Source: an uncultured Candidatus Saccharibacteria bacterium (GTDB lineage Bacteria; Patescibacteriota; Minisyncoccia; Minisyncoccales; CAYZYK01). Taken from it: DNA of 64,000 nt. Location of the stretch: contig CAZDPT010000002.1 in NCBI GenBank assembly GCA_964507665.1, positions 29,016-93,015 of the forward strand, read 5' to 3'. The notes beneath the pieces were generated by a model. The model was not told where the DNA came from. It worked only from the letters and a program-made list of their open reading frames with translations, and ran no database searches. Numbering within the stretch: the first letter of the stretch is position 1; each line of letters starts with the position of its first letter. Made by a program: the position numbers and the translations under genes. Shown one piece after another: positions 14,873 to 43,011 of the stretch.

Positions 14873-15096
14873 TTCTTTTTCTGGGCTTTTTTAACTTTTT
14901 CCATTTTCTTTCTGAATTTTTGTACTTGACCTACTGTTTCCATAATCTTATCTTTACCTGTATAAAAAGGATGGCATTTGAAGCAAATTTCTGTTTCAAT
15001 TTCAGGAACGGTTGAACCAACAGTAAAAGTATTTCCGCAAGCACAGTGGACTTTTGCTTCGGGATAATATTTTGGATGAATATCTTTTTTGGGCAT
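14869..15096 (-). CDS. rpmE: ribosomal protein L31 (Zn-ribbon type)
   Basis: [11 protein letters not shown] start at the internal ATG (15096), plus CxC...CxxC Zn ligands. The longer track ORF N-terminus looks spurious. Confidence 0.85.
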
Positions 15097-15181
15097 AATC
15101 ATTTTAGTTTTTAGATAACAAATATATATTAACAGAATTTTTTTAAAAATCAACCCTTTTTAATTTTTATTAATTTTGGAC

Positions 15182-15210
15182 TTGACAGGTTTTTTTCTTT
15201 TTGGTAAAAA
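15182..15210 (+). promoter_or_regulatory. sigma70-like promoter (TTGACA-17-TAAAAA)
   Basis: TTGACA at 15182-15187, a 17-nt spacer, and TAAAAA at 15205-15210. Confidence 0.5.
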
Positions 15211-15220
15211 GAAAAAAGTT

Positions 15221-15283
15221 ATGAAAACAAAAATAAACCCTGAATTGAAAGACTTTTATTTCCTTTTTACCTTTTTTGGATAG
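15221..15283 (+). CDS. putative Phe/Tyr-rich leader peptide MKTKINPELKDFYFLFTFFG
   Basis: 20-codon ORF 10 nt after the -10 element. It has 5 Phe plus 1 Tyr in the last 9 codons, and its stop abuts the antiterminator arm. Confidence 0.6.
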   Translation: MKTKINPELKDFYFLFTFFG

Positions 15284-15351
15284 GAGGTTAGTTTGGGTTT
15301 AAACTGAATTTATCCAAATTAACCTCTTCTTCAAAAGAGGTTTTCTTTTTT
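15284..15351 (+). promoter_or_regulatory. attenuator: antiterminator and terminator alternative hairpins
   Basis: gaggttagtttgg (15284-15296) pairs with ccaaattaacctc (15314-15326), 12/13 bp. The overlapping terminator is aacctctt (15321-15328)/aagaggtt (15335-15342) followed by ttcttttttt. Confidence 0.55.
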
Positions 15352-15462
15352 GAAGAAGTTGAAGTACAACTGGTCCTTTAAAACTTAACAATGGAGGTAA
15401 TTTAAGAAGTAACTTCCGAAGAGGATGAGTATCTTGAACTTCAGCAGAAAAGGAGGGAGAAG

Positions 15463-16206
15463 ATGACAGTAAGATTAAATAATAACAGAAAGAGAGCAGT
15501 TATGTATTTCTTGGAGAGGTTTCCTTCCCCGGAGGGGCTACCCTCAAGTCAAGAGGAAGTTAAGAGAGTTTTTCAATCTCCAAGAGTAGAAGGGGTAGTG
15601 AGTTTTGCTTTGGGTCCAGAAGGGACCAATATTTCCCAAGCCAGCCAGGAATGGGTAGAAGAGACGGGCATTAAAGAAAAAACGACTACTATTCTGGAAT
15701 CTACACCTGAAGAATGTCTTCAATTGGCAAGAGAGATAACAGAACCAAATGTTGTTTCTTTATTCTGGACCTGTGCTGTATTTTATGCACTGAAAGATTT
15801 GTTTTTTACAAATCCAGATGTATATCCTTTCTTTATCCAGCATGGAATGAGACTGGATGAGATGCAGCTTGCTACCAGAGAAGATATTTTGGAGCAAATA
15901 AACCAATTAGGAATTTCACCAGATTGGGTAATTGCTTCTCATCCTTCACCCGCACCTTTACTTGAAGAGTTAGCAAGAAGTAAGGGATGTATTGTCACTG
16001 AAGCAAACAGCAATTCTGATGCTGCCCAAAAGTGTGCTTCAGAAGAGGTGAATCTTTGTATGACCACCGAGAGCGCACGGGAGATACACGATTTGATAGA
16101 GATTCATTCTTTTGGTTCTCCCCTGATGATATTTTTCGGTGGGATAACCTCTACTGGAGCAGAGGTAATAAGAAGGGTTTATTCTGAATTACAAGAAGAG
16201 GAGTAA
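15463..16206 (+). CDS. prephenate dehydratase-fold protein lacking the TRF motif and ACT domain
   Basis: FALGPEGTNISQAS resembles the PDT N-terminal LGPxGTxSxxAA, and SHPSPAPLL resembles SHPQAxxQC. There is no IENS or TRF motif. Strong SD aggaggg lies 5 nt upstream. Confidence 0.5.
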   Translation: MTVRLNNNRKRAVMYFLERFPSPEGLPSSQEEVKRVFQSPRVEGVVSFALGPEGTNISQASQEWVEETGIKEKTTTILESTPEECLQLAREITEPNVVSLFWTCAVFYALKDLFFTNPDVYPFFIQHGMRLDEMQLATREDILEQINQLGISPDWVIASHPSPAPLLEELARSKGCIVTEANSNSDAAQKCASEEVNLCMTTESAREIHDLIEIHSFGSPLMIFFGGITSTGAEVIRRVYSELQEEE

Positions 16207-16249: not shown

Positions 16250-17812
16250 TTGACCTCAATTTTTTTGTACGATATACTGATTTATATGATTAATGCTATT
16301 GTCGGAGTAAAGGGAGATATGGGAAGTAATTTACTCCTTCCACTTTTAGAAAAATTAGGAGAAGTTCGGACAGCAGATAAGAATAGTTCAAAAGATCAAT
16401 GGAATAAGGTTTGGCAATCAGATGTAATTTGGCTCTCGGTGCCTCGAAAAGCTATTCCAGATATTGTTAAAGATGTTAAATTAAAACCTGAGCAATTAAT
16501 AATAGATATCTGTTCCATAAAGCGTGGCTTATCAGATGTTATTAAATCAACAGGTGCTTCTCATCTTTCCTTACATCCTCTTCATGGTCCTTATATCCCT
16601 CTTAGTGGACAAAAGTGGGTGATTATTAATGATAAATTAACAAAAAATCACCCCCATGCTAAAGCTATTTTAGCTTTTTTAAAAGAAAAAGGAATTAATT
16701 TCCTCAGAACGAAGTCAGAAAAAGAACATGATTTTATGATTGGAGTTGTTTTGAGTTTACCTGAACTTCTTACCTTGGTTATTGATTCTTTAATAAATCA
16801 TTATGCAAAAGAATCGGACCAAAAGGAGCCCAATATAAAGGAATTAATAGAGTGGTCAGTACCTGCCTCGAATGCTCTTTTTAGTTCTTATATTCATTCT
16901 ATTGCAAGTTCAGCAGACTGGCTCCGAGAAGAACTTATTTGTGAGGCCTATGGAAATTTAATTAAGAGTGCCAAGAAAACATTTATTGAATTGAGTAAAA
17001 TATCTTGCAAGAAGATAACCAAAGAGATTGTCAGACAAAATGAGGTTGTTAAGGAATTACCATCGGAAGAAAGAAAGAGGATTCAACAATGGATAGAAAG
17101 ATGGTTTGTTGATTCAACTCAAAAAGTATTCTCTTTTCATAAGAAAAAACAAATGAAACCAAAAATTAATATTCAACAATATAAAGATAAGAATCAAATT
17201 TTCCCCGTTGAAAAAGGAGAAATTACAGTTGGAATTCATGGTATAAAAGCTTGTTTTACTCATGAATCAACTTTGCGATTGTGTGAAGAATTGGGTCTTA
17301 ATCCAGATAACTTAAACTTTAAATATTTAATTGAAGCAAAGAGAGTAATTGAGGCAGTTGATGAAGGAGAGATAGATCGAGGCGTTTTCTGTATAGCTAA
17401 TTCTGGCTCTGGAGCTTATGTTGAAAGTGTACATACTATGGGAAATTACCAGTTTGAAGTTTTAGCAATTTATGGAATGGAAATTCTCCAATGCTTATTA
17501 TCCCATCCTTCTGTTGATGAAATAAGTGAGATAAAAGAAGTTTTTGCTCACCCTCAAGCAGTTAGTCAATGTAAAAGAACCTTTGCAGAAAAATACCCCG
17601 ATATTAAATTGATTCCGGGAGAAGATAAGGATGATACCGCCCTTTGTGCTAAAAAGATATCAGAAGGAGATTTTCCGAAAACAACTGCAACTTTGGCTTC
17701 ACAATTAGCAGCTGAAACATACGGGTTGAATGTTTTAGAATACGGCATGCATCATGATCCCTTCAATACTACCACTTTTGTAGTAATAAGAAAAAAGATA
17801 AATTGTAGATAA
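16250..17812 (+). CDS. fusion protein: prephenate dehydrogenase (TyrA-like) N-terminus + prephenate dehydratase domain C-terminus
   Basis: N-terminus: GVKGDMG Rossmann motif, DICSIK and LHPLHGP TyrA motifs. C-terminus: CIANSGSG (IENS-like), AHPQAVSQC and NTTTFVVI (TRF-like TTF). Start is TTG at 16250 (GGAG upstream) or ATG at 16286. Confidence 0.65.
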   Translation: MTSIFLYDILIYMINAIVGVKGDMGSNLLLPLLEKLGEVRTADKNSSKDQWNKVWQSDVIWLSVPRKAIPDIVKDVKLKPEQLIIDICSIKRGLSDVIKSTGASHLSLHPLHGPYIPLSGQKWVIINDKLTKNHPHAKAILAFLKEKGINFLRTKSEKEHDFMIGVVLSLPELLTLVIDSLINHYAKESDQKEPNIKELIEWSVPASNALFSSYIHSIASSADWLREELICEAYGNLIKSAKKTFIELSKISCKKITKEIVRQNEVVKELPSEERKRIQQWIERWFVDSTQKVFSFHKKKQMKPKINIQQYKDKNQIFPVEKGEITVGIHGIKACFTHESTLRLCEELGLNPDNLNFKYLIEAKRVIEAVDEGEIDRGVFCIANSGSGAYVESVHTMGNYQFEVLAIYGMEILQCLLSHPSVDEISEIKEVFAHPQAVSQCKRTFAEKYPDIKLIPGEDKDDTALCAKKISEGDFPKTTATLASQLAAETYGLNVLEYGMHHDPFNTTTFVVIRKKINCR

Positions 17813-19963: not shown

Positions 19964-20029
19964 TTAATATGATCGTTGAAAGATAACAAGTAAAATCAGT
20001 TACTTGAAATTGCCTCGGATAAAACTTTT

Positions 20030-21530
<1,501 letters not shown>

Positions 21531-21726
21531 AATAGGTTGACTAAGGTTGAAGTCTGAAATTTGGATTTTAACCTTAAGGGAATTGGTTAAGTTACCCTTT
21601 AAGACTTGACTTATCCGAGGCAATTTCAAGCAACTAATTTCTCCCTTAAGAAGTTGAGGGTTTTTTGTTTGGATCTTGCTGATTACCTTTATTTTTGTTA
21701 AAATTTAAATAATTAAATCTAAAAGA

Positions 21727-21800
21727 GCGCACGTGGCTCAGTTGGTTAGAGCACACCTCTGATAAGGGTGAGGTCCCTGGTTCGAATCCAGGCGTGCGCA
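21727..21800 (+). tRNA. tRNA-Ile (anticodon GAU)
   Basis: Acceptor GCGCACG/CGTGCGC, anticodon loop CTGATAA, T-loop TTCGAAT. Confidence 0.9.
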
Positions 21801-21814
21801 CTATCTTTACAGTT

Positions 21815-21887
21815 GGGCCTGTAGTTCAGTTGGAAGAACGCCGCTCTTGCACAGCGGAGGTCAGCGGTTCGAATCCGCTCGGGTCCA
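21815..21887 (+). tRNA. tRNA-Ala (anticodon UGC)
   Basis: Acceptor GGGCCTG with the G3:U70 identity pair, anticodon loop CTTGCAC, T-loop TTCGAAT. Confidence 0.9.
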
Positions 21888-21897
21888 CTAAATTAAA

Positions 21898-21930
21898 TTA
21901 ACCACCTCAGAAAAGGTGGTTAATTTGTTT
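21898..21930 (+). terminator. intrinsic terminator ending the 16S-tRNA transcription unit
   Basis: ttaaccacc/ggtggttaa 9-bp stem, loop tcagaaaa, then tttgttt. Confidence 0.6.
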
Positions 21931-21966
21931 AACTCGGAGAATTGGGATTTAATAAAACTAATCTTT

Positions 21967-23187
21967 TTAAATTTTTGTTTGGGTTTTGGTTTGGGTTTTG
22001 GGAGGAGTAACGAAGTAATCTTTTTTAACGTGTTCAATTAATATTTTAGTTAATATAGGGGCAAGGAGAGTGGTGATAACACTTAAAATAATCATAGCGG
22101 TCACTAATTCAGAAGATAGAATTTTCATTTCTTGACCAACAAAGACTACAGCTAAGGTAGTGGTGAGCTGGGGGATACTTGTGGCTGCCACTAGGGCACT
22201 TTGTTTTAAAGTATGATGACGTAAACGAGCAGCAATCCAAGTGCTTCCAAATTTAGTCACTAGAGAACCAAACAGGATGGTTATTGTTAATATCCAAAAC
22301 CCTTTTGTTTCCAAAAAAATATTAATATTTGTTTTCATACCTATAGATACAAAAAATATAGGTATGAAAAATCCATAAGATAAAGCAAATATCTTATTTT
22401 TTAATTCAGGATTGGTTATTACCCCCGAAAGTACTAAACCTGCAAAAAATGCTCCTATCATAGGATGCAATCCAAGCAATTCAAATACAACCACCATTCC
22501 TAATAGAATAACAAAGATGAAACGAAGTTCACGTTCAAAGCCAAACTTCTCCTCTGATATAAATATTTTAGCAAGAAAACGATAAGAACGAAAAATAACC
22601 CAAACAAACAATCCTCCTAACAAAAATATTCCAACAAACAATAAGATAAACCAGGTCAAAGAGAGAGTTGAACCAGGAGATAAATATTGTAAGGCAACAG
22701 CAAGAATTATTAAACTTAAAATATCTTGTAGTATAATGGCTGAAGTGGTTAATTGACCTATTTTAGTTTTTAAAAGTTTTTTTTCTTCTAAAATAGGAAC
22801 AACCACAGCAAAGGAAGAGGACATAAAAATAATTCCTAACAAGATAACCGCGCCAATATTATAACCAAAAAATAGACCAATTAGTGCTCCTATGATGGCG
22901 GGAACAAAACCGCTTATCAAAGCAATTAAAACTGAATCTTTCCAAAATTGTTTAATTCCCGATAATTTAATTTCTAATCCGGCCATGAATAATAAAAATA
23001 TCAATCCCAGAGATGCCAGAAAATTAAAAGTGGCATCGGGAGCAACAAATTTAAAACCAAAAGGGCCGATGATTATTCCTGCTACAATAAGAGCTATTAC
23101 CCAAGGAATTCGAAAACGATGAAGTATTCGGGAAAAAAATAAAGAAACTGATAAGATTAAAAATAGTGGAATTAGTCCTTCTTGCAT
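21967..23187 (-). CDS. cation:proton antiporter (CPA2/Kef-NapA-like)
   Basis: 406 aa with about 12 predicted TM helices. N-terminal pattern resembles Na+/H+ exchanger family proteins. Confidence 0.7.
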   Translation of the reverse strand: MQEGLIPLFLILSVSLFFSRILHRFRIPWVIALIVAGIIIGPFGFKFVAPDATFNFLASLGLIFLLFMAGLEIKLSGIKQFWKDSVLIALISGFVPAIIGALIGLFFGYNIGAVILLGIIFMSSSFAVVVPILEEKKLLKTKIGQLTTSAIILQDILSLIILAVALQYLSPGSTLSLTWFILLFVGIFLLGGLFVWVIFRSYRFLAKIFISEEKFGFERELRFIFVILLGMVVVFELLGLHPMIGAFFAGLVLSGVITNPELKNKIFALSYGFFIPIFFVSIGMKTNINIFLETKGFWILTITILFGSLVTKFGSTWIAARLRHHTLKQSALVAATSIPQLTTTLAVVFVGQEMKILSSELVTAMIILSVITTLLAPILTKILIEHVKKDYFVTPPKTQTKTQTKI

Positions 23188-23429
23188 TTTATAAATTATA
23201 GCAAAAAAAAGATTAAATAAAAACTGATGAATCTGAGGATATCTTTTAACCTCAAGCTCTAAAACATATTATATTAGAGAGATTCTCATTTTATATCCCC
23301 TTTAATCTCTTAAAAAGTTATCCACAGATTTAGTAGAAACTCTGTTTTATTTTTGTTATAATACTTCAATTATTAAAAGTTAAAGGTCGAGATTTAATTT
23401 AGAAATAATAATTTTTAAATCTTTTTAAA

Positions 23430-24125
23430 ATGATTATTGGTTCATGGGCTCAAATAACTATTGATGCTTTAAAAGATCTTTGGCGAGGATTTTTAGATTT
23501 TATTCCTGAAGCTATAGGAGCTATTGTAGTTTTTGTTATTGGTTGGTTTATTGCTGCTGGTGTCGGAAAATTAGTTGAGAAGATTTTGTTGAAGTTACAG
23601 TTTAACAAACTTTTTGAGAAAGAAGGATGGAGAGAAGCTCTAGAAAAAGCAGATCTTAAAGTTGATGCCTCAAAATTCGTTGGAGCAATTGTTAAATGGG
23701 TTTTAGTAATTGTTTTCTTACTGGCTGCAGTAGAGATTTTAGGATTAGTACAATTTGCTAATTTCTTACAGGATGTTCTAGCTTACTTGCCTAATGTAAT
23801 TGTTGCTGTTTTGATTTTTGTGGTGACTTTCATTGTAGTAGATATTGTTGAGAAATTGGTGAGAGCATCTGTAGAAAGAATAAAAGTTGGTTACGGAAAT
23901 TTAATAAGTTTGTTTGTTAAATGGGCTATTTGGGTGTTTGCAGTTTTTGCTATTTTACGACAGCTTGTAATTGTTCCCACATTGATTGATACTCTATTTA
24001 AAGCTTTGGTTTATGGAGTGGTGGCTATGTTTGTAATTACAGCTGGGCTTGCTTTCGGACTTGGTGGAAGAGATTTTGCTAAAGAAGTTTTAGAAGAGTT
24101 AAGAAGAAAGGTTAGAAAGCGATAA
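23430..24125 (+). CDS. conserved TM-helix-repeat membrane protein (MscS-N-terminal-like family)
   Basis: Several TM helices with repeated VxxVxxWxIxxVxxL-type segments. Family assignment rests on pattern memory only. Confidence 0.4.
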   Translation: MIIGSWAQITIDALKDLWRGFLDFIPEAIGAIVVFVIGWFIAAGVGKLVEKILLKLQFNKLFEKEGWREALEKADLKVDASKFVGAIVKWVLVIVFLLAAVEILGLVQFANFLQDVLAYLPNVIVAVLIFVVTFIVVDIVEKLVRASVERIKVGYGNLISLFVKWAIWVFAVFAILRQLVIVPTLIDTLFKALVYGVVAMFVITAGLAFGLGGRDFAKEVLEELRRKVRKR

Positions 24126-24184
24126 TTCCTTTTGTTGATTTCGTTTTTAAGTAAGGTCTTGTTCAAGAGGGGGTTCTCTCCCTC

Positions 24185-24212
24185 TTGACAGGGTTTTAGA
24201 ATTTGATAAAAT
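24185..24212 (+). promoter_or_regulatory. 23S-5S promoter (TTGACA-16-TAAAAT)
   Basis: Hexamers at 24185-24190 and 24207-24212, overlapping the terminator hairpin of the upstream gene. Confidence 0.5.
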
Positions 24213-24302
24213 AATAATAGTAGTAAAAGAAGTATATTGTAATCTTGCTTCTTTTGCTCAATAGTTAAGTTATGAGAAAACCAGAAATCATATTAAATAA
24301 AG

Positions 24303-24413
24303 GAAGCGGTTAATTTTACCGGAGAATTCTATTTCTCTTTTGGGTAACCGCTTCTCTGAAGCGGTTTTTGGTTAGGGGAAGACGAGAGTAGAGAGAGAAC
24401 CTTGAAAATTAAA
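24303..24413 (+). promoter_or_regulatory. 23S leader: triple 9-10 nt element forming alternative hairpins, plus boxA-like element
   Basis: Three elements: gaagcggtta (24303-12), taaccgcttc (24345-54) and gaagcggtt (24358-66) followed by ttt. boxA-like gaaccttgaaaattaaa lies at 24397-24413. Confidence 0.4.
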
Positions 24414-27032
24414 TAGTGGAAAATTAAAAGATAATTAAAATCTGTATCTATTCCGCAGGAATAAATTAATTTAAAGGCAAATGGTGGATGCCTCGGGAGT
24501 AGGAAGCGATGAAGGACGTGGCGTAGCTGCGATAAGCCTCGGGGAGATGCTGAGCAATCTTTGATCCGGGGATATCCGAATGGGATAACCTATTCGCGTG
24601 ATAAACACGAATAACTCTGTCAGACGGCAGAGTAGCGAACCTGGTGAAGTGAAACATCTCAGTAACCAGAGGAAAAGAGAACGAAGTTTATTCTCTTAGT
24701 AGCGGCGAGCGAAAAGGGAAGAGTCCAAACCGAGTACTTTTTGTGCTCGGTGTAGTAAGGAGATAATTTCAGGGATATTTCTGGTGCACAGAAATATCCA
24801 CTGAGGGAGTTTATAACACAAAACTTGGTTAAAAGAAACACCCTGGAAAGGGGTGCCATAGAGGGTGATAGCCCCGTATTTAAAAACCGTTTTGTACTCC
24901 TTGTTATCTTTCTTGAGTACCGTCGGAAATGAAAGCCCGGCGGGAACCACCCCGAACTATCGGGGAAGACTAAATATTCCTACTCACCAATAGCGAACAA
25001 AGTACCGTGAGGGAAAGTTGAAAAGTAGCCCTGTGAGGGCGGTGAAATAGAACCTGAAACCATTTGCTTACAAAGAGTCAGAGCTCCACTTGTGGAGTGA
25101 TGGCGTGCTTTTTGCAGAACGAGCCAACGAGTGTATTTTATCCGCTAGTCTAAGAGGTTCTGCCTCGAAGGCATAGGGAAACCAAGTGTGAAAGCGCATC
25201 AAGCGGAGAGAATACGACCCGAAACCAGGCGATCTTACCATGGCCAGGGTGAACCCACTGTAAAAAGTGGGGGAGGCCCGAACCCGTAAGCCGGGCAATG
25301 CTTTGGGATGAGCTGTGGTAAGGAGTGAAAAGCTAATCGAGCTTGGTAATAGCTGGTTCTCCCCGAAACAGCTTTAGGGCTGACGTCTAGTTATATCTAT
25401 TGGAGGTAGAGCACTGGAAGGATTATCGTGGATTTTTCCAGATTTTCCTACCAAACTCCGAATACCAATAGACTTATCTAGGCAGTCAGACTATGGGGGC
25501 TAAGCTCCATAGTCGAAAGGGAAAGAGCCCAGACCATCATCTAAGGTCCCCAAGATTGAGCTAAGTGTATCTTAAGGAAGTATTTTGCCCCAGACAAACA
25601 GAAGGTTTGCTTAGAGGTAGCTATCCTTTAAAGAGTGTGTAAAAACTCACTGTTCTACTCATCCTTTGGATGAGAAGGGCAAGGTGCGCCGAAGATTTCC
25701 GGGACTCAAGCTCAACACCGAAGATATGGTTCAATATATTTAATATATTGGAGGTAGGGGAGCGTTCTGTTTGCGTTGAAGGTGAACCGGAAGGTTCACT
25801 GGAGCGGACAGAAGTGAGAATGTTGGCATGAGTAACCACAATAGGTGTGAGATTCACCTACACCGAAAACCCAAGGTTTCCTTGGCAATGGCGATCAGCC
25901 AAGGGTTAGGCGGTCCTAAGGTGAACCCGAAAGGGGTAATCGATGGACAGCCGGTTAATATTCCGGCCCTCCATTACTTTTTCAAAGAGGTAACGAAATT
26001 TAGTAGGTAAGGCAGATTATTGGATTTCTGTCCTCAGTCTAAGTTTTTACAAGGACTGAGGGGAAATTTGTCTTCGGACAAATTAACCTTACTGAGCAAA
26101 TTTCCAAGAAAAGCCTCCGCGAGTTAAAAGTAATGGATCCGTACCGCAAACCGACACAGGTGGGTTGGCATAAATGTGCTAAGGTGAACGGGTGAAACCT
26201 CGTTAAGGAACTCGGCAAAAAAGTGGCCGTAACTTCGGGATAAGGCCTACCACCATTTAGGTGGTCGCAGCTAAAGTTCCCCTGGCGACTGTTTATCAAA
26301 AACATAGGTCCCTGCTTAACTCGTAAGAGGATGTATAGGGGCTGAGGCCTGACCAGTGTTGGAACGTTAATGGTGGCGGTCCTTGTTTTACCTTCGGGTG
26401 AAATAACAAGGGCTGACTGCTTGAAGCTCCAATGAACGTCGGCGATAACTATAATCGTCCAAAGGTAGCGTAGTCCCTTGCCGGGTAAGTTCCGGCCTGC
26501 ATGAAAGGCTTAACGGCTGGGGGGCTGTCTCAACGAGGAGCCCGGTGAAAATGCAATACCGGTAAAGATGCCGGTTACCTGCGGCAAGACGGAAAGACCC
26601 CGGAAGCTTTACTGGAGCTAGATATTGGGTTTTGATTTTGAATGCGTAGTGTAGGTGGGAGACTTTGAAGCCAGAATTTCGGTTCTGGTGGAGTCGCCAA
26701 TGGAACACCACCCTTTTGAAATCTTTATTCTAATTTCGTTGTCCAAAGTACAACGGAAGACAGTGTTTAGCGGACAGTTTAAGTGGGGCGCTTGCCTCCC
26801 AAAGAGTAACGGAGGCGTTTATTAAGGTCGGCTAACTCCGGATGGAAATCGGAGTAATAGGACAAAGCCACAAGCCGGCTTTACTGCAAGACGGCTATGT
26901 CACGCAGTTGGGAAACCAGAACTTAGTGAACCGAGCGTAGTTTATAGAACCGCGTGAGATTATCAGATAAAAGTTACCCCGGGGATAACAGGTTGGTAGG
27001 GCCCGAGAGTCCATATCTACGGCCCTGTTCGA

Positions 27033-27104
<72 letters not shown>

Positions 27105-27120
27105 TGGTACGTGAGCTGGG

Positions 27121-28260
27121 TTGAGTAAAACTTGAGCCCAGTTAAAACTGGCTAATAACGGTGAAACCCATTATTTATTGTGGTATAATAAAATAATGGG
27201 CAATACCGTGGGAAGACAATTTTTTACCTTAAAGTTTCAAAGAGAAGTAATTATAGGATGTCTTTTAGGAGATGGAAGATTAGAATGTCGATCAAAAGAA
27301 GGAAGCGCCAGATTAAGAATTCATCACGGATGGAAGCAAAAAGATCTTGTCTTTTGGAAATATAGGGTGCTGAAAAACATAGTTTCTTGTCCTCCAAGAA
27401 GAATAGTTTGTTGGAAGAATCCTAAAAATGGTGAAGATTACCATTCCTGGTATTTTCACACTCGAACACTTCTAGGATTGAGAGAAATTTATAAGATGTT
27501 TTATCCAGACGGAGCAAAGATTTTACCCCAGAATATTCTTGATTTGTTAACACCAGTAAGTTTAGCAGTTTGGCTTATGGATGATGGATGCAATGATAGA
27601 AATTCTCTTGTTCTCAATACTCATAATTTTTCAAGAATCGAGAATAAAAGATTACAAGAAGTTCTTAAAGTGAAATTTAATCTTGATTTTGGGATTAATA
27701 AAGATCGAGATAAATGGAGATTAAGGCTTTATAGCAATGATTTTCAAAAGATAATAGATTTGACAGAGCCATATATTATTCCATCAATAAAGTATAAAAT
27801 TGTCCCCGTAGAGACTGAGTCCGTAAGAAGGACGAGGCAGTAGATAACCTACTGCAATACGCCAGTCCCATTAGATAATTTCAAAATCTATGGGAAAGAT
27901 ATAGTCCATGCTTATAGTAATATAAGAGTAAATATGTCAGACCGTCAAAAAAAGAACTTTAGATATCGAGTTCACACGGCGGCTTCCTGCTGTAAAGCAG
28001 GTTGAAAAACCGACTCATATCGGTGAAGTCCTTGTATCTTAACCTGTCGTGTACTAGGATAATACCGAGGGAAGTCGTAAATATTTTTTTATGGAGAATC
28101 TTCTAAAGGAAAAGAAAAATGTTTATTGACCCTGTAGAGACTTAGTGAAAAATTTTACTAGATTCTTTTCATTTTTGAGAAGGATAATACGTCGGTCCCC
28201 TTGAGATAGATATATATTTCATAGGGTGATGGTATAGTCCATTCCACTGGTAACAGTGGG
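27121..28260 (+). mobile_element. group-I-like intervening sequence in 23S domain V (between GCUGGG(UU) and UUUAGAA, E. coli ~U2584-U2586 region)
   Basis: Exon homology stops at ...gtgagctgggtt and resumes at gggtttagaatgcgtgagacagg. It contains S-element aagatatagtcc and R-like gtagagactgag motifs twice, plus a LAGLIDADG ORF. Confidence 0.8.
27196..27843 (+). CDS. double-motif LAGLIDADG homing endonuclease (intron-encoded)
   Basis: Motif 1 is IIGCLLGDGRL and motif 2 is LAVWLMDDGC. ATG at 27196 is preferred over the upstream TTG. The 3' end overlaps the first ribozyme core. Confidence 0.85.
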   Translation: MGNTVGRQFFTLKFQREVIIGCLLGDGRLECRSKEGSARLRIHHGWKQKDLVFWKYRVLKNIVSCPPRRIVCWKNPKNGEDYHSWYFHTRTLLGLREIYKMFYPDGAKILPQNILDLLTPVSLAVWLMDDGCNDRNSLVLNTHNFSRIENKRLQEVLKVKFNLDFGINKDRDKWRLRLYSNDFQKIIDLTEPYIIPSIKYKIVPVETESVRRTRQ

Positions 28261-28600
28261 TTTAGAATGCGTGAGACAGGTTGGTCCCTATCTACCGTAG
28301 GCGTTGAGTCTTGAGAGGAGTCATCCCTAGTACGAGAGGACCGGGATGAACTAACCTCTGGTGTACCAGCTGTTGCGCCAGCAGCACCGCTGGGTAGCTA
28401 AGTTGGGAAGGGATAAGCGCTGAAAGCATCTAAGTGCGAAGCCCACCTCAAGATTAGGACTCATAGACTCCTTGAAGACCACGAGGTTGATAGGCTCCAG
28501 GTGTAAGTCTAGTAATAGATTTAGCCGAGGAGTACTAATAAGTCATAAGTTTATTCCTCAAAGAATAGATACAGATTTTAGAAATCTTTTAAAAGGCATT

Positions 28601-28714
28601 TTGGTGGCGGCTATACTGGAGTTGTCCCACCTGTTCCCATTTCGAACACAGAAGTGAAATACTCCGAGGCCGATGATAGTAGGTTTTACCTGCGAAAGTA
28701 GGTAGCCGCCACCT
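28601..28714 (+). rRNA. rrf: 5S rRNA
   Basis: ttggtggcggctatactggag...cccacctgttcccatttcgaacacagaagt...gtagccgccacc. Helix I pairs the termini. Confidence 0.88.
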
Positions 28715-42525: not shown

Positions 42526-42553
42526 TTGACAAGGTTTTTTAAAGAGGTAAAAT
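42526..42553 (+). promoter_or_regulatory. promoter (TTGACA-16-TAAAAT) driving a non-coding or peptide transcript
   Basis: Hexamers at 42526-42531 and 42548-42553. Confidence 0.45.
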
Positions 42554-42559
42554 AAAAGT

Positions 42560-42925
42560 AGTATGCAAAAGATAAACCTAACCAATCTTGTAGTACTTCA
42601 AGTAGTAGCAGATAGTAATCTGCTTGGTTGGGTTTGTTAAGAAAAAAAATAAATAGAAAAAAAGCAAATCTGGCCGAGCAGAGCCAGATTTTTAAGTTTA
42701 AATCTACAAAAGTTCCTTAAAAACTAATTCTGTCCTAGGAGAACAGTCACCCAAACTACAGAAAAAGAACACTATCAGAGAGTAAAGGAGATAGGGCTCT
42801 GTAAACAGCAGAGTATCCGTGGCCATTTCCCATCATAGAAAAGCCGGTCTTTTGGAAAACACCTTCTTCCAGAAGACCCTCCTTTACTCTTAAACAAGGG
42901 GGCCAGACCAGGCCCCCTCTTTTTA
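42560..42925 (+). ncRNA. candidate structured RNA(s) of unknown class, ending at a GC-rich terminator
   Basis: 5' module: a long hairpin (aaacctaaccaa/ttggttgggttt) and the hairpin aaatctggc/gccagattt. 3' module: a perfect 12-bp closing helix 42779-42790/42879-42890 enclosing two hairpins. Terminator is gggggcc-agacca-ggccccc-tcttttt (42898-42924). Confidence 0.45.
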
Positions 42926-42931
42926 GTTGAC

Positions 42932-43011
42932 TTGACAAGAATTTTTTAATAAATATAATTAAATGAGGGTGAATTATCACTCTTGACCTCAGACTGCTAA
43001 TTTTATATAAT
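42932..43011 (+). promoter_or_regulatory. tandem hrcA operon promoters (TTGACA-16-TATAAT and TTGACC-17-TATAAT)
   Basis: P1 hexamers at 42932-37 and 42954-59. P2 hexamers at 42983-88 and 43006-11. Confidence 0.5.
42974..43000 (+). promoter_or_regulatory. CIRCE operator (HrcA binding site)
   Basis: TTATCACTC-N9-GACTGCTAA against the consensus TTAGCACTC-N9-GAGTGCTAA, one mismatch per arm. It overlaps the P2 -35 and spacer. Confidence 0.7.

Follow-up and report, generated by a model that had tools for sequence, protein, structure and literature searches.

The stretch analysed here, 64,000 nt of contig CAZDPT010000002.1 from an uncultured Candidatus Saccharibacteria bacterium (hereafter the window), contains a divergent intergenic region that carries a plus-strand leader of about 170 bases. 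On the minus strand this region is bounded by the gene for L31 (start at about 15099), with release factor 1 beyond it, while the plus strand past the leader encodes a 247-aa protein (gene 1), a 507-aa protein that combines PDH_N and PDT domains (gene 2), rpsB, tsf and an rRNA operon. The leader comprises a promoter, a 20-codon open reading frame (ORF) with a run of Phe and Tyr codons, and overlapping RNA hairpins followed by a U-run. We consider it likely that this element is a ribosome-mediated transcription attenuator that responds to the charging of tRNA-Phe and tRNA-Tyr. Its target would be gene 1 and perhaps also, through read-through, gene 2; the transcription start, leaderless translation of the ORF, actual termination and a response to starvation are parts of this reading that we infer from the sequence. 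The features on which it is built are the following.

15182..15187, plus strand: -35 hexamer TTGACA, identical in the closest relative (locus L002)
15205..15210, plus strand: -10-like hexamer TAAAAA, 17 nt past the -35 and 10 nt ahead of the ATG
15221..15283, plus strand: leader ORF, ATG at 15221, 20 codons MKTKINPELKDFYFLFTFFG and a TAG stop (15281-83)
15254..15277, plus strand: regulatory codon run F12 Y13 F14 L15 F16 T17 F18 F19
15269..15277, plus strand: segment 1, ACCUUUUUU, codons T17 F18 F19; pairs with 15333-15341 in the minimum-free-energy fold and is kept in L002
15278..15296, plus strand: arm 2, the antiterminator 5' arm, with the TAG stop and the core gaggttagtttgg; homologous to the conserved GAGGTTGGTTTGA of relatives
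15314..15332, plus strand: arm 3, shared; the antiterminator 3' arm, of which 15321-28 doubles as the terminator 5' arm
15321..15342, plus strand: terminator hairpin aacctctt-cttcaa-aagaggtt, 8 bp with a 6-nt loop, from the terminator scan and its energy
15343..15351, plus strand: U-run TTCTTTTTT, predicted 3' end of the attenuated transcript

The original prediction had described the promoter TTGACA-17-TAAAAA, an ATG 10 nt further on and a 20-codon ORF with 5 Phe and 1 Tyr codons, and all of these are present where it had placed them, the six aromatic codons falling among codons 12-20 (6 of the last 9). Our promoter scan left the promoter unlisted solely since it requires a T at the final position of the -10 hexamer. 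The distance from -10 to ATG, 10 nt in the window and 6-14 nt in 29 of 33 relatives, fits a leaderless start: transcription would begin a few bases 5' of ATG 15221, and the ORF would have to be translated as a leaderless or near-leaderless mRNA.

Beyond the codon run, gaggttagtttgg (15284-96) pairs with ccaaattaacctc (15314-26) at 13 of 13 positions, with 12 Watson-Crick pairs and one G.U pair, so both antiterminator arms exist as proposed. The overlapping terminator hairpin (15321-42) exists as well; the T-rich run TTTTCTTTTTT lies directly 3' of it, and the unit was picked up independently by a terminator scan. Comparison of the two conformers gives -18.4 kcal/mol for the antiterminator (15284-15326) against -8.2 kcal/mol for the terminator, making the former more than competitive. 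The idea of two mutually exclusive hairpins holds in that both can form, but it falls short in that the antiterminator helix is longer than had been supposed: pairing continues outward into a single hairpin, 15269-15341 (28 pairs, one mismatch and four G.U pairs, -35.8 kcal/mol), which takes in the last Phe codons and, through the pairing of segment 1, extends the antiterminator down to the U-run. When 15217-15360 is folded, this hairpin is the structure of minimum free energy (-39.8 kcal/mol, z = -4.0, equalled by 1 of 200 shuffles), and it folds less well on the minus strand because of its four G.U pairs. Since the long hairpin itself abuts the U-run, there are more states than antiterminator and terminator, and the folding suggests a three-state switch.

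How the position of a ribosome would bear on these states was modelled by partition-function folding of the RNA present with the polymerase on the U-run, the ribosome being represented as a mask over the A-site codon plus 12 nt; the test is purely thermodynamic. In the window the terminator has a probability of 0.7-1.0 when the A site is on codon 19, codon 20 or the stop, in agreement with the earlier proposal that a ribosome reaching the stop would occlude the antiterminator arm. For A-site positions before codon 19 this probability is about 0 and the antiterminator is formed. Arm 4, the 3' arm of the terminator, is truly single-stranded only for A-site codons 14-18, and with no ribosome, or with one stalled at codons 12-13, the helix reaches the U-run. 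Among 34 related leaders folded in the same way, terminator probability is at most 0.2 with a ribosome on some aromatic codon in 31 and at least 0.5 at the stop in 33, and about half give a three-phase profile like that of the window. In this model a ribosome at the stop masks the arm, and one on the aromatic codons leaves it free, in the window and in 30-33 of the 34 relatives. When the upstream parts of the related leaders were shuffled, a probability of at most 0.2 was reached in just 8%, and shuffling the upstream part of the window leader with its composition preserved gave a helix that displaces the terminator in 0 of 30 cases.

A search of relatives for mini-ORFs rich in Phe and Tyr and for compensatory changes in the arms shows that the mini-ORF and the hairpins are kept and that the antiterminator covaries. 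The gene 1 family search gave 203 matches, mostly from metagenome-assembled genomes (MAGs) of Patescibacteria, with the named ones from Parcubacteria or Staskawiczbacteria, and 32 genome and 80 metagenome loci were retrieved through these homologues. The layout of promoter, near-abutting ATG, F/Y/W mini-ORF, competing helix, terminator and U-run recurs upstream of the homologous genes in more than 35 divergent Patescibacteria loci; the terminators of L018, L028, L041 and L070 were assigned by hand. Representative leader peptides are listed by locus.

L007 (Staskawiczbacteria): MIQIITQNFSCFFTFFKKGVGLNIK
L052: MQNVTNRNYFYFYFFSFFQREVGLSI
L019 (Paceibacterota): MNMLADKFFNFFYFSR
L024: MIKTQANKWFFSFFFYTDR
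L003 (Parcubacteria): MILTANNSYFAFYFIN

Upstream of gene 1 homologues, an aromatic mini-ORF (at least 5 aromatic codons in 8) occurs in 33 of 95 regions when the sense strand is read and in 4 of 95 when the antisense strand is; shuffled sequences give 1.6%, and the remaining tiles of these loci give 3.3%. Minus-strand "leaders" that a generic scan returned at L020, L046, L049 and L101 were rejected as antisense to coding sequence. A perfect TTGACA stands at the same relative position, with a 16-17-nt spacer, in 29 of 33 related leaders, and 29 of 33 have their ATG 6-14 nt past the end of the -10 and lack a Shine-Dalgarno (SD) sequence; the TAAAAA form of the -10 is also present in L002, L033, L041 and L050. 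The 34 leaders together hold 752 codons, of which 162 are Phe, 54 Tyr and 6 Trp (30% F/Y/W). All 222 of these aromatic codons lie in frame 0, which contains no stops; the two alternative frames contain 89 and 166 aromatic codons and are interrupted by 66 and 57 stops, respectively. The aromatic run of the relatives begins at about codon 8-10 and mixes Phe with Tyr, the latter being found in all but two of the 34. Every one of the 34 has a hairpin and U-run. Relatives mostly read the ORF through arm 2, whose conserved GAGGUUGGUUUGA is translated E-V-G-L, while in the window and L019 the stop codon lies immediately ahead of this arm; as arm 2 is either translated or past the stop, the constraint there must be on the RNA rather than the peptide.

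Pairing was assessed in A4, in which the window and 22 window-like leaders were aligned by MAFFT on sequence alone (23 sequences; an earlier version had 17), with pairs defined from the window. For arm 2 and arm 3, 82.0% of cells are paired, whereas shuffles give 73.2% (none of 500 reaching the observed value) and slid partners 38-60%, and double changes occur in 14 of 18 pairs, amounting to 47 double-change cells where 17.7 are expected. Terminator pairs are 77% paired, above the slid controls; their covariation is only modest because variable loops misalign arm 4. A covariance model, R1, built from the 22 relatives with the window excluded, gives a single strong match on the 64-kb window, at 15266-15351 (60.4 bits, E = 2.9e-11), the next plus-strand match scoring 21 bits. 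A "ANNWFFGFYFFTDR" subfamily of leaders is also recognised.

The closest relative, L002, has the same synteny as the window, with L31 on the minus strand followed by leader, gene 1, gene 2 and rpsB. Its leader ORF, MKTKINSELKNFYFFFTFLG, is likewise preceded by TTGACA-17-TAAAAA. Nucleotide identity between the two loci is 88% over promoter and ORF, 65% in gene 1, 70% in gene 2, 70% in rpsB and 84% in L31. Between arm 2 and arm 3, compensatory double changes in L002 have turned one A-U pair into G-C and one G-C pair into A-U, and one G.U pair has become A-U; L002 keeps the long hairpin (-32.8 kcal/mol, z = -3.8). A gene for 3-deoxy-D-arabino-heptulosonate 7-phosphate (DAHP) synthase stands between leader and gene 1 in L002. 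This gene (L002:1890-2911) is broken by four in-frame stops (TAA, TGA, TAA and TAG), with frame changes further downstream; the stops presumably fall at Gln, Arg, Gln and Gln positions, in which case all would be C-to-T changes of CAA, CGA and CAG. Either the gene is a pseudogene in decay, or the interruptions are an oddity of assembly or recoding.

Taken together, these data support the following mechanism for the window leader. Transcription would begin a few bases ahead of ATG 15221, the leader would be translated without an SD sequence, and the outcome would be set by where the ribosome stands when RNA polymerase arrives at the U-run. With Phe and Tyr plentiful, the ribosome would reach the TAG (15281-83) and its footprint would hide arm 2 (15284-96), leaving arm 3 to pair with arm 4 as the terminator (15321-42), which together with the U-run would end the transcript at about 15345-51. 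A ribosome held on the Phe and Tyr codons, ideally with its A site on codons 14-18, would instead cover segment 1 and leave arm 2 free; arm 2 would then pair with arm 3 (-18 against -8 kcal/mol), the 3' arm of the terminator would remain single-stranded, and polymerase would enter gene 1. With no ribosome, or with an earlier stall, the helix would zip down to 15269:15341 beside the U-run and would probably terminate transcription, comparable to the "superattenuation" of trp.

The two genes that follow are these.

15463..16206, plus strand: gene 1, 247 aa, remote member of a prephenate-dehydratase-like family
16286..17812, plus strand: gene 2, prephenate dehydrogenase-like N-terminal half and a prephenate dehydratase domain

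Both had been taken for prephenate-utilising enzymes. For gene 2, with clear PDH_N and PDT domains, this stands, whereas gene 1 appears to be only a remote relative of prephenate dehydratase, as suggested by the weak matches of 25 of 36 members of its family to PF00800. Gene 1 and gene 2 abut or overlap in relatives, where aminotransferases of class I/II or class IV and tyrosyl-tRNA synthetase flank the pair. Across the family, aromatic leaders are located upstream of genes of the PDT-like and PDH/PDT types, of chorismate mutase (L065) and of DAHP synthase (L002, L023, L052, L064 and L074).

The match between codon bias and pathway that had been noted at the window locus therefore holds for the family, and it extends to other amino acids. 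A Leu-rich leader, MKSFTKINLLLGLLLLKPLGGRFICV (L024:503-653), stands upstream of leuA (HMGL-like and LeuA_dimer domains), and an Ile-rich leader, MINSKPTSPRNIIAIISIIITFARGEVGYC, with the run …NIIAIISIIITF… (L021:2371-2524, the same as L097:4446-4599), stands upstream of an 89-aa ORF. Both are matched by R1 and share the promoter, arm and terminator architecture of the aromatic leaders. Ribosome-mediated sensing predicts just this agreement between the enriched amino acid and the pathway downstream, for which another explanation is hard to find.

This observation bears directly on the possibility that the element is a switch operated by RNA alone or by a protein (for instance a riboswitch, a T-box-like element or a binding-protein attenuator), in which the mini-ORF is incidental. 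Exclusive helices and covariation would fit any antitermination switch equally well, the ORF has no SD sequence before it, and the -10-to-ATG spacing leaves nearly no 5' untranslated region. However, the locus matches no T-box, PyrR or other Rfam model, and beyond the two arms and the ORF nothing is conserved enough to form a ligand pocket. Moreover, the spacing between promoter and ATG is fixed, the reading frame is open in every case, and the frame-0 aromatic codons are concentrated from about codon 9, while the replacement of these codons by Leu ahead of leuA, and by Ile elsewhere, is predicted by translation-based sensing only. We therefore regard such a switch as unlikely.

We give still less credence to the view that the locus is a small gene for an aromatic-rich micropeptide, or a short sRNA (small RNA), with its own promoter and a plain terminator and with no link to gene 1. 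Promoter, 20-codon ORF, hairpin and U-run do make a self-contained unit, and the full hairpin 15269-15341, ending as it does at the U-run, could serve as a plain terminator. On the other hand, the peptide is poorly conserved save for its aromatic content, its C-terminal part shifting with the position of the stop, and the internal 3:4 hairpin that competes with 2:3 pairing, which a simple terminator would not need, is kept in 31 of 34 leaders. The unit is also always co-oriented with, and directly upstream of, aromatic-pathway genes, and it sometimes follows the gene 2 stop with no promoter of its own. Second aromatic leaders of this kind lie downstream of gene 2 at L052:4167-4309, L064:3826-3953, L074:4283-4436, L023:5325-5460 and L075:4366-4501, several of them beginning right after the gene 2 stop without their own promoter. 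Four of the five are followed by a DAHP synthase with a ferredoxin-like N-domain; the ORF downstream of the L075 one has no Pfam match. These second leaders are putative internal attenuators within the operon.

A role mainly in translational control, in which the structures govern access to the gene 1 ribosome-binding site or the stability of the transcript, seems about as improbable as a free-standing micropeptide or sRNA gene. The segment concerned is the following.

15352..15462, plus strand: spacer carrying the gene 1 SD sequence GGAGG (15452-56) and GTCCTTTAAAACTTAA (15378-93)

When 15100-15470 is folded, the U-run is paired with the purine-rich sequence around the gene 1 SD, small hairpins occur near the SD sequence in several relatives, and the terminator stem is weak. 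Yet such U-rich to purine-rich pairing is expected from composition alone, the hairpin is directly followed by the U-run in every leader, and the terminator-to-SD spacer ranges from 18 to 246 nt with no conserved pairing; folding this spacer in all relatives gave no consistent structure. A short motif after the terminator recurs in this family: GTCCTTTAAAACTTAA at 15378-15393 of the window resembles GTTCCTTAAAAACTAA at 42712-42727, after a second leader-like unit of the window, and a matching motif, GAAG.AGTTCTTT, is found in the spacers of L007, L052, L063, L075, L087 and others. This motif, or the pairing of U-run and SD region, may represent a translational layer.

Chance, in the sense of a T-rich intergenic tract of a 33%-GC genome that happens to yield Phe codons, a promoter-like match and a hairpin, draws on the finding that about 5% of 450-nt tiles of the window, which itself has 33% G+C, hold an equally aromatic mini-ORF (29 of 566 with at least 5 aromatic codons in 8, so that an F-rich mini-ORF by itself is weak and non-significant evidence) and that promoter-like and terminator-like matches occur in the region at the shuffle-expected frequency, but it is already effectively refuted by the comparative data, i.e. 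more than 35 divergent loci with covariation, an R1 match at E = 2.9e-11 and a leader 88% identical to L002 between genes at 65-70%, as well as by the lack of a competing helix in all 30 shuffles. The window leader ORF is the sole one of 17 aromatic mini-ORFs in the window with a -35 and -10 in front; the remaining 16 were rejected, having no promoter and lying inside genes.

Ribosome-mediated attenuation by Phe and Tyr codons is thus the reading we prefer, and several observations nevertheless weigh against it. As the long hairpin abuts the U-run, only a narrow range of ribosome positions (A site on codons 14-18) would allow read-through, and a ribosome stalled on the first Phe and Tyr codons (12-13) is predicted to cause termination. 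With 8 bp, of which 3 are G-C, and -8.2 kcal/mol, the terminator is weak; the -10 hexamer TAAAAA of the window has no conserved final T, and the leader ORF lacks an SD sequence. Across the family the outer 1:4 pairing reaches 72.5%, close to the 66.7% of shuffles and the 65-70% found with partners slid by one column, and we therefore propose the superattenuated state for the lineage of the window and L002 only. With respect to the regulated genes, the gene 1 protein of the window has no Pfam or PDB match, and a PDB profile search with its family gave none either. Gene 2 is probably transcribed separately as a leaderless mRNA. It is preceded by a candidate promoter, TTGACC (16250-55)-17-TATACT (16273-78), and because its ATG (16286) lies 7 nt past the TATACT with no SD sequence, leaderless expression is plausible in this genome and may even be the norm; a 10-bp hairpin with a T-run at 16233-57, between genes 1 and 2, overlaps this candidate promoter. 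Finally, the pathway served by the switch may be incomplete, as the DAHP synthase gene that follows the leader in L002 is absent in the window.

A broader proposal, towards which we lean only slightly, is that the window leader belongs to a modular, Patescibacteria-wide family of leaderless attenuators that operate as three-state switches. In this family a single scaffold, made up of arm 2 with GAGGUUGGUUUGA, the shared arm 3 and the terminator, would be fitted with exchangeable codon sets: Phe and Tyr (and Trp in some), Leu, Ile and possibly, at 42563 of the window, Val and Leu. If true, this would be the first evidence of translation-transcription coupling for amino acid sensing in the Candidate Phyla Radiation (CPR), and would mean that some CPR bacteria retain regulated synthesis of aromatic amino acids.

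Comparison with described systems places the element close to, yet outside, known families. Rfam searches of the whole window (gathering score), of 15000-15600 (E ≤10) and of 15 related loci returned no leader, T-box or riboswitch family, only chance miRNA- (microRNA-) or sRNA-like hairpins. The Phe_leader model in particular was unmatched at the gathering score, at E ≤10 in 15000-15600, and in the 15 related loci. The label "pheL-like" is thus apt for the mechanism but not for homology. In pheL-pheA, a ribosome on a run of Phe codons chooses between a 2:3 antiterminator and a 3:4 terminator (PMC3082878), and in a 2010 survey pheL was essentially confined to the gamma subdivision (PMC3082878). 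The window leader resembles it in having an ORF with a Phe run, a 2:3 antiterminator opposed to a 3:4 terminator with a U-run, a stop codon at which the ribosome would mask segment 2, and a regulated gene that is a relative of prephenate dehydratase. It differs in that its family mixes Phe with Tyr and sometimes Trp, whereas pheL uses Phe only; in that the ORF lacks an SD sequence, with the ATG 6-14 nt past the -10 in the family, whereas the Phe_leader ORF is SD-dependent; and in that no 1:2 pause hairpin is evident, segment 1 pairing instead with segment 4 outside the 2:3 helix. Most members of the window family, in addition, translate through arm 2, and the hosts are Patescibacteria.

The general model of the classical trpL, hisL and leuL attenuators, which has been reviewed and modelled (PMC1183508), offers a further parallel. 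Regulatory codons stand in succession, and a ribosome on them would decide, by kinetic coupling, whether antiterminator or terminator forms; an untranslated leader would give a third, "superattenuated" state; and one architecture is reused for other amino acids. In contrast to these systems, the untranslated state of the window leader would consist of a 1:4 helix nested around 2:3, not of separate 1:2 and 3:4 hairpins, and initiation would be leaderless. Leaderless regulatory short ORFs are known from the polycysteine attenuators of mycobacteria (bioRxiv 10.1101/834739). Like these actinobacterial examples, the window ORF lacks an SD sequence and has codons for the product of the downstream operon, and, judged from promoter spacing, it would start at or near the 5' end of the transcript; it concerns another amino acid and another phylum and comes with a clear terminator, antiterminator and U-run. 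The other obvious comparison is with T-box riboswitches, the usual control of aromatic amino acid genes and aminoacyl-tRNA synthetases in Firmicutes. Both types would sense tRNA charging and choose between terminator and antiterminator upstream of amino acid genes, but the window element would sense through translation of an ORF, and it has no T-box sequence, specifier stem or Rfam match, the T-box being unmatched among all Rfam matches with E ≤10.

We regard the element as real and conserved. It represents a family new to a textbook mechanism, found in a phylum that is likewise new to it, and Rfam 15 does not contain it. The host had been described as CPR-like, a label that is justified since its named S2 homologues come from Patescibacteria, Parcubacteria, Minisyncoccales, Nealsonbacteria and Paceibacterales; the nearest non-self S2 relative is only 70% identical. 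Sequencing runs SRR7048218 and SRR7048220 contain the contig. CPR bacteria, or Patescibacteria, are usually described as episymbionts without amino acid biosynthesis, and to our knowledge almost nothing is known of how they regulate their genes. It had been stated that leader-peptide attenuation is essentially undescribed in CPR genomes, and in agreement with this the literature that we searched held no description of it for CPR or Patescibacteria, nor any relevant link of leader peptides, attenuation or prephenate with Patescibacteria, CPR or Parcubacteria. As the mechanism is a textbook one, the value of the finding lies in where the attenuator occurs and in what this says of CPR physiology, not in a new principle. 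Conservation of the element in dozens of uncultured relatives would mean that these reduced organisms keep and regulate a part of aromatic amino acid synthesis, namely at least its terminal enzymes, to which relatives add DAHP synthase and chorismate mutase, and that they tune these to tRNA charging. It would further imply a coupling of transcription and translation tight enough for attenuation, as well as leaderless initiation of regulatory ORFs beyond Actinobacteria. The family also supplies a sequence and structure model for annotating regulated amino acid genes in thousands of uncultured genomes.

One additional feature overlaps the promoter of the leader itself.

15190..15218, no strand assigned: T-run/A-run inverted repeat tttttttcttttt-ggt-aaaaagaaaaaa, forming a hairpin in the fold of 15100-15470

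This near-perfect repeat spans the promoter spacer, the -10 and the predicted start region, and is kept in L002; it is possibly an operator or a feature of promoter architecture.

The second leader-like unit of the window lies at 42528-42935 on the plus strand. It begins with TTGACA-16-TAAAAT, nine nt after which stands ATG 42563, with no SD sequence. The ORF, MQKINLTNLVVLQVVADSNLLGWVC, has a Val/Leu run at codons 9-15, and GGTTGGGTTTG (42626-36) is an arm similar to arm 2 of the Phe/Tyr leaders. An antiterminator at 42619-42683 (-26.2 kcal/mol) and a terminator at about 42667-92 are predicted, and the mask profile switches from 0 to 0.8 at codon 18, as in 0 of 50 shuffles. The leader is followed by about 230 nt without an ORF, highly structured and with a strong terminator at the end (42559-42935: -120.4 kcal/mol, z = -8.9). 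The unit at 42528-42935 gave no Rfam match and no tmRNA (transfer-messenger RNA). The gene after it is hrcA, which has its own promoter with a CIRCE-like repeat.

Elsewhere in the window, the release factor 1 gene directly after L31 (14123-14872, minus strand) encodes only 249 aa and starts at about position 100 of RF1 models; the N-terminal domain is missing, and L002 has the same short form. The rRNA operon (20028-28714) is split, with 16S at 20028-21529 and a 23S (24460-27181) about 200 nt shorter than the model, and between the two lie two tRNAs, a Na+/H+ exchanger gene on the minus strand and an MscS-like gene. An ORF for a LAGLIDADG endonuclease (27178-27843) is located between the end of the 23S and the 5S (28603).

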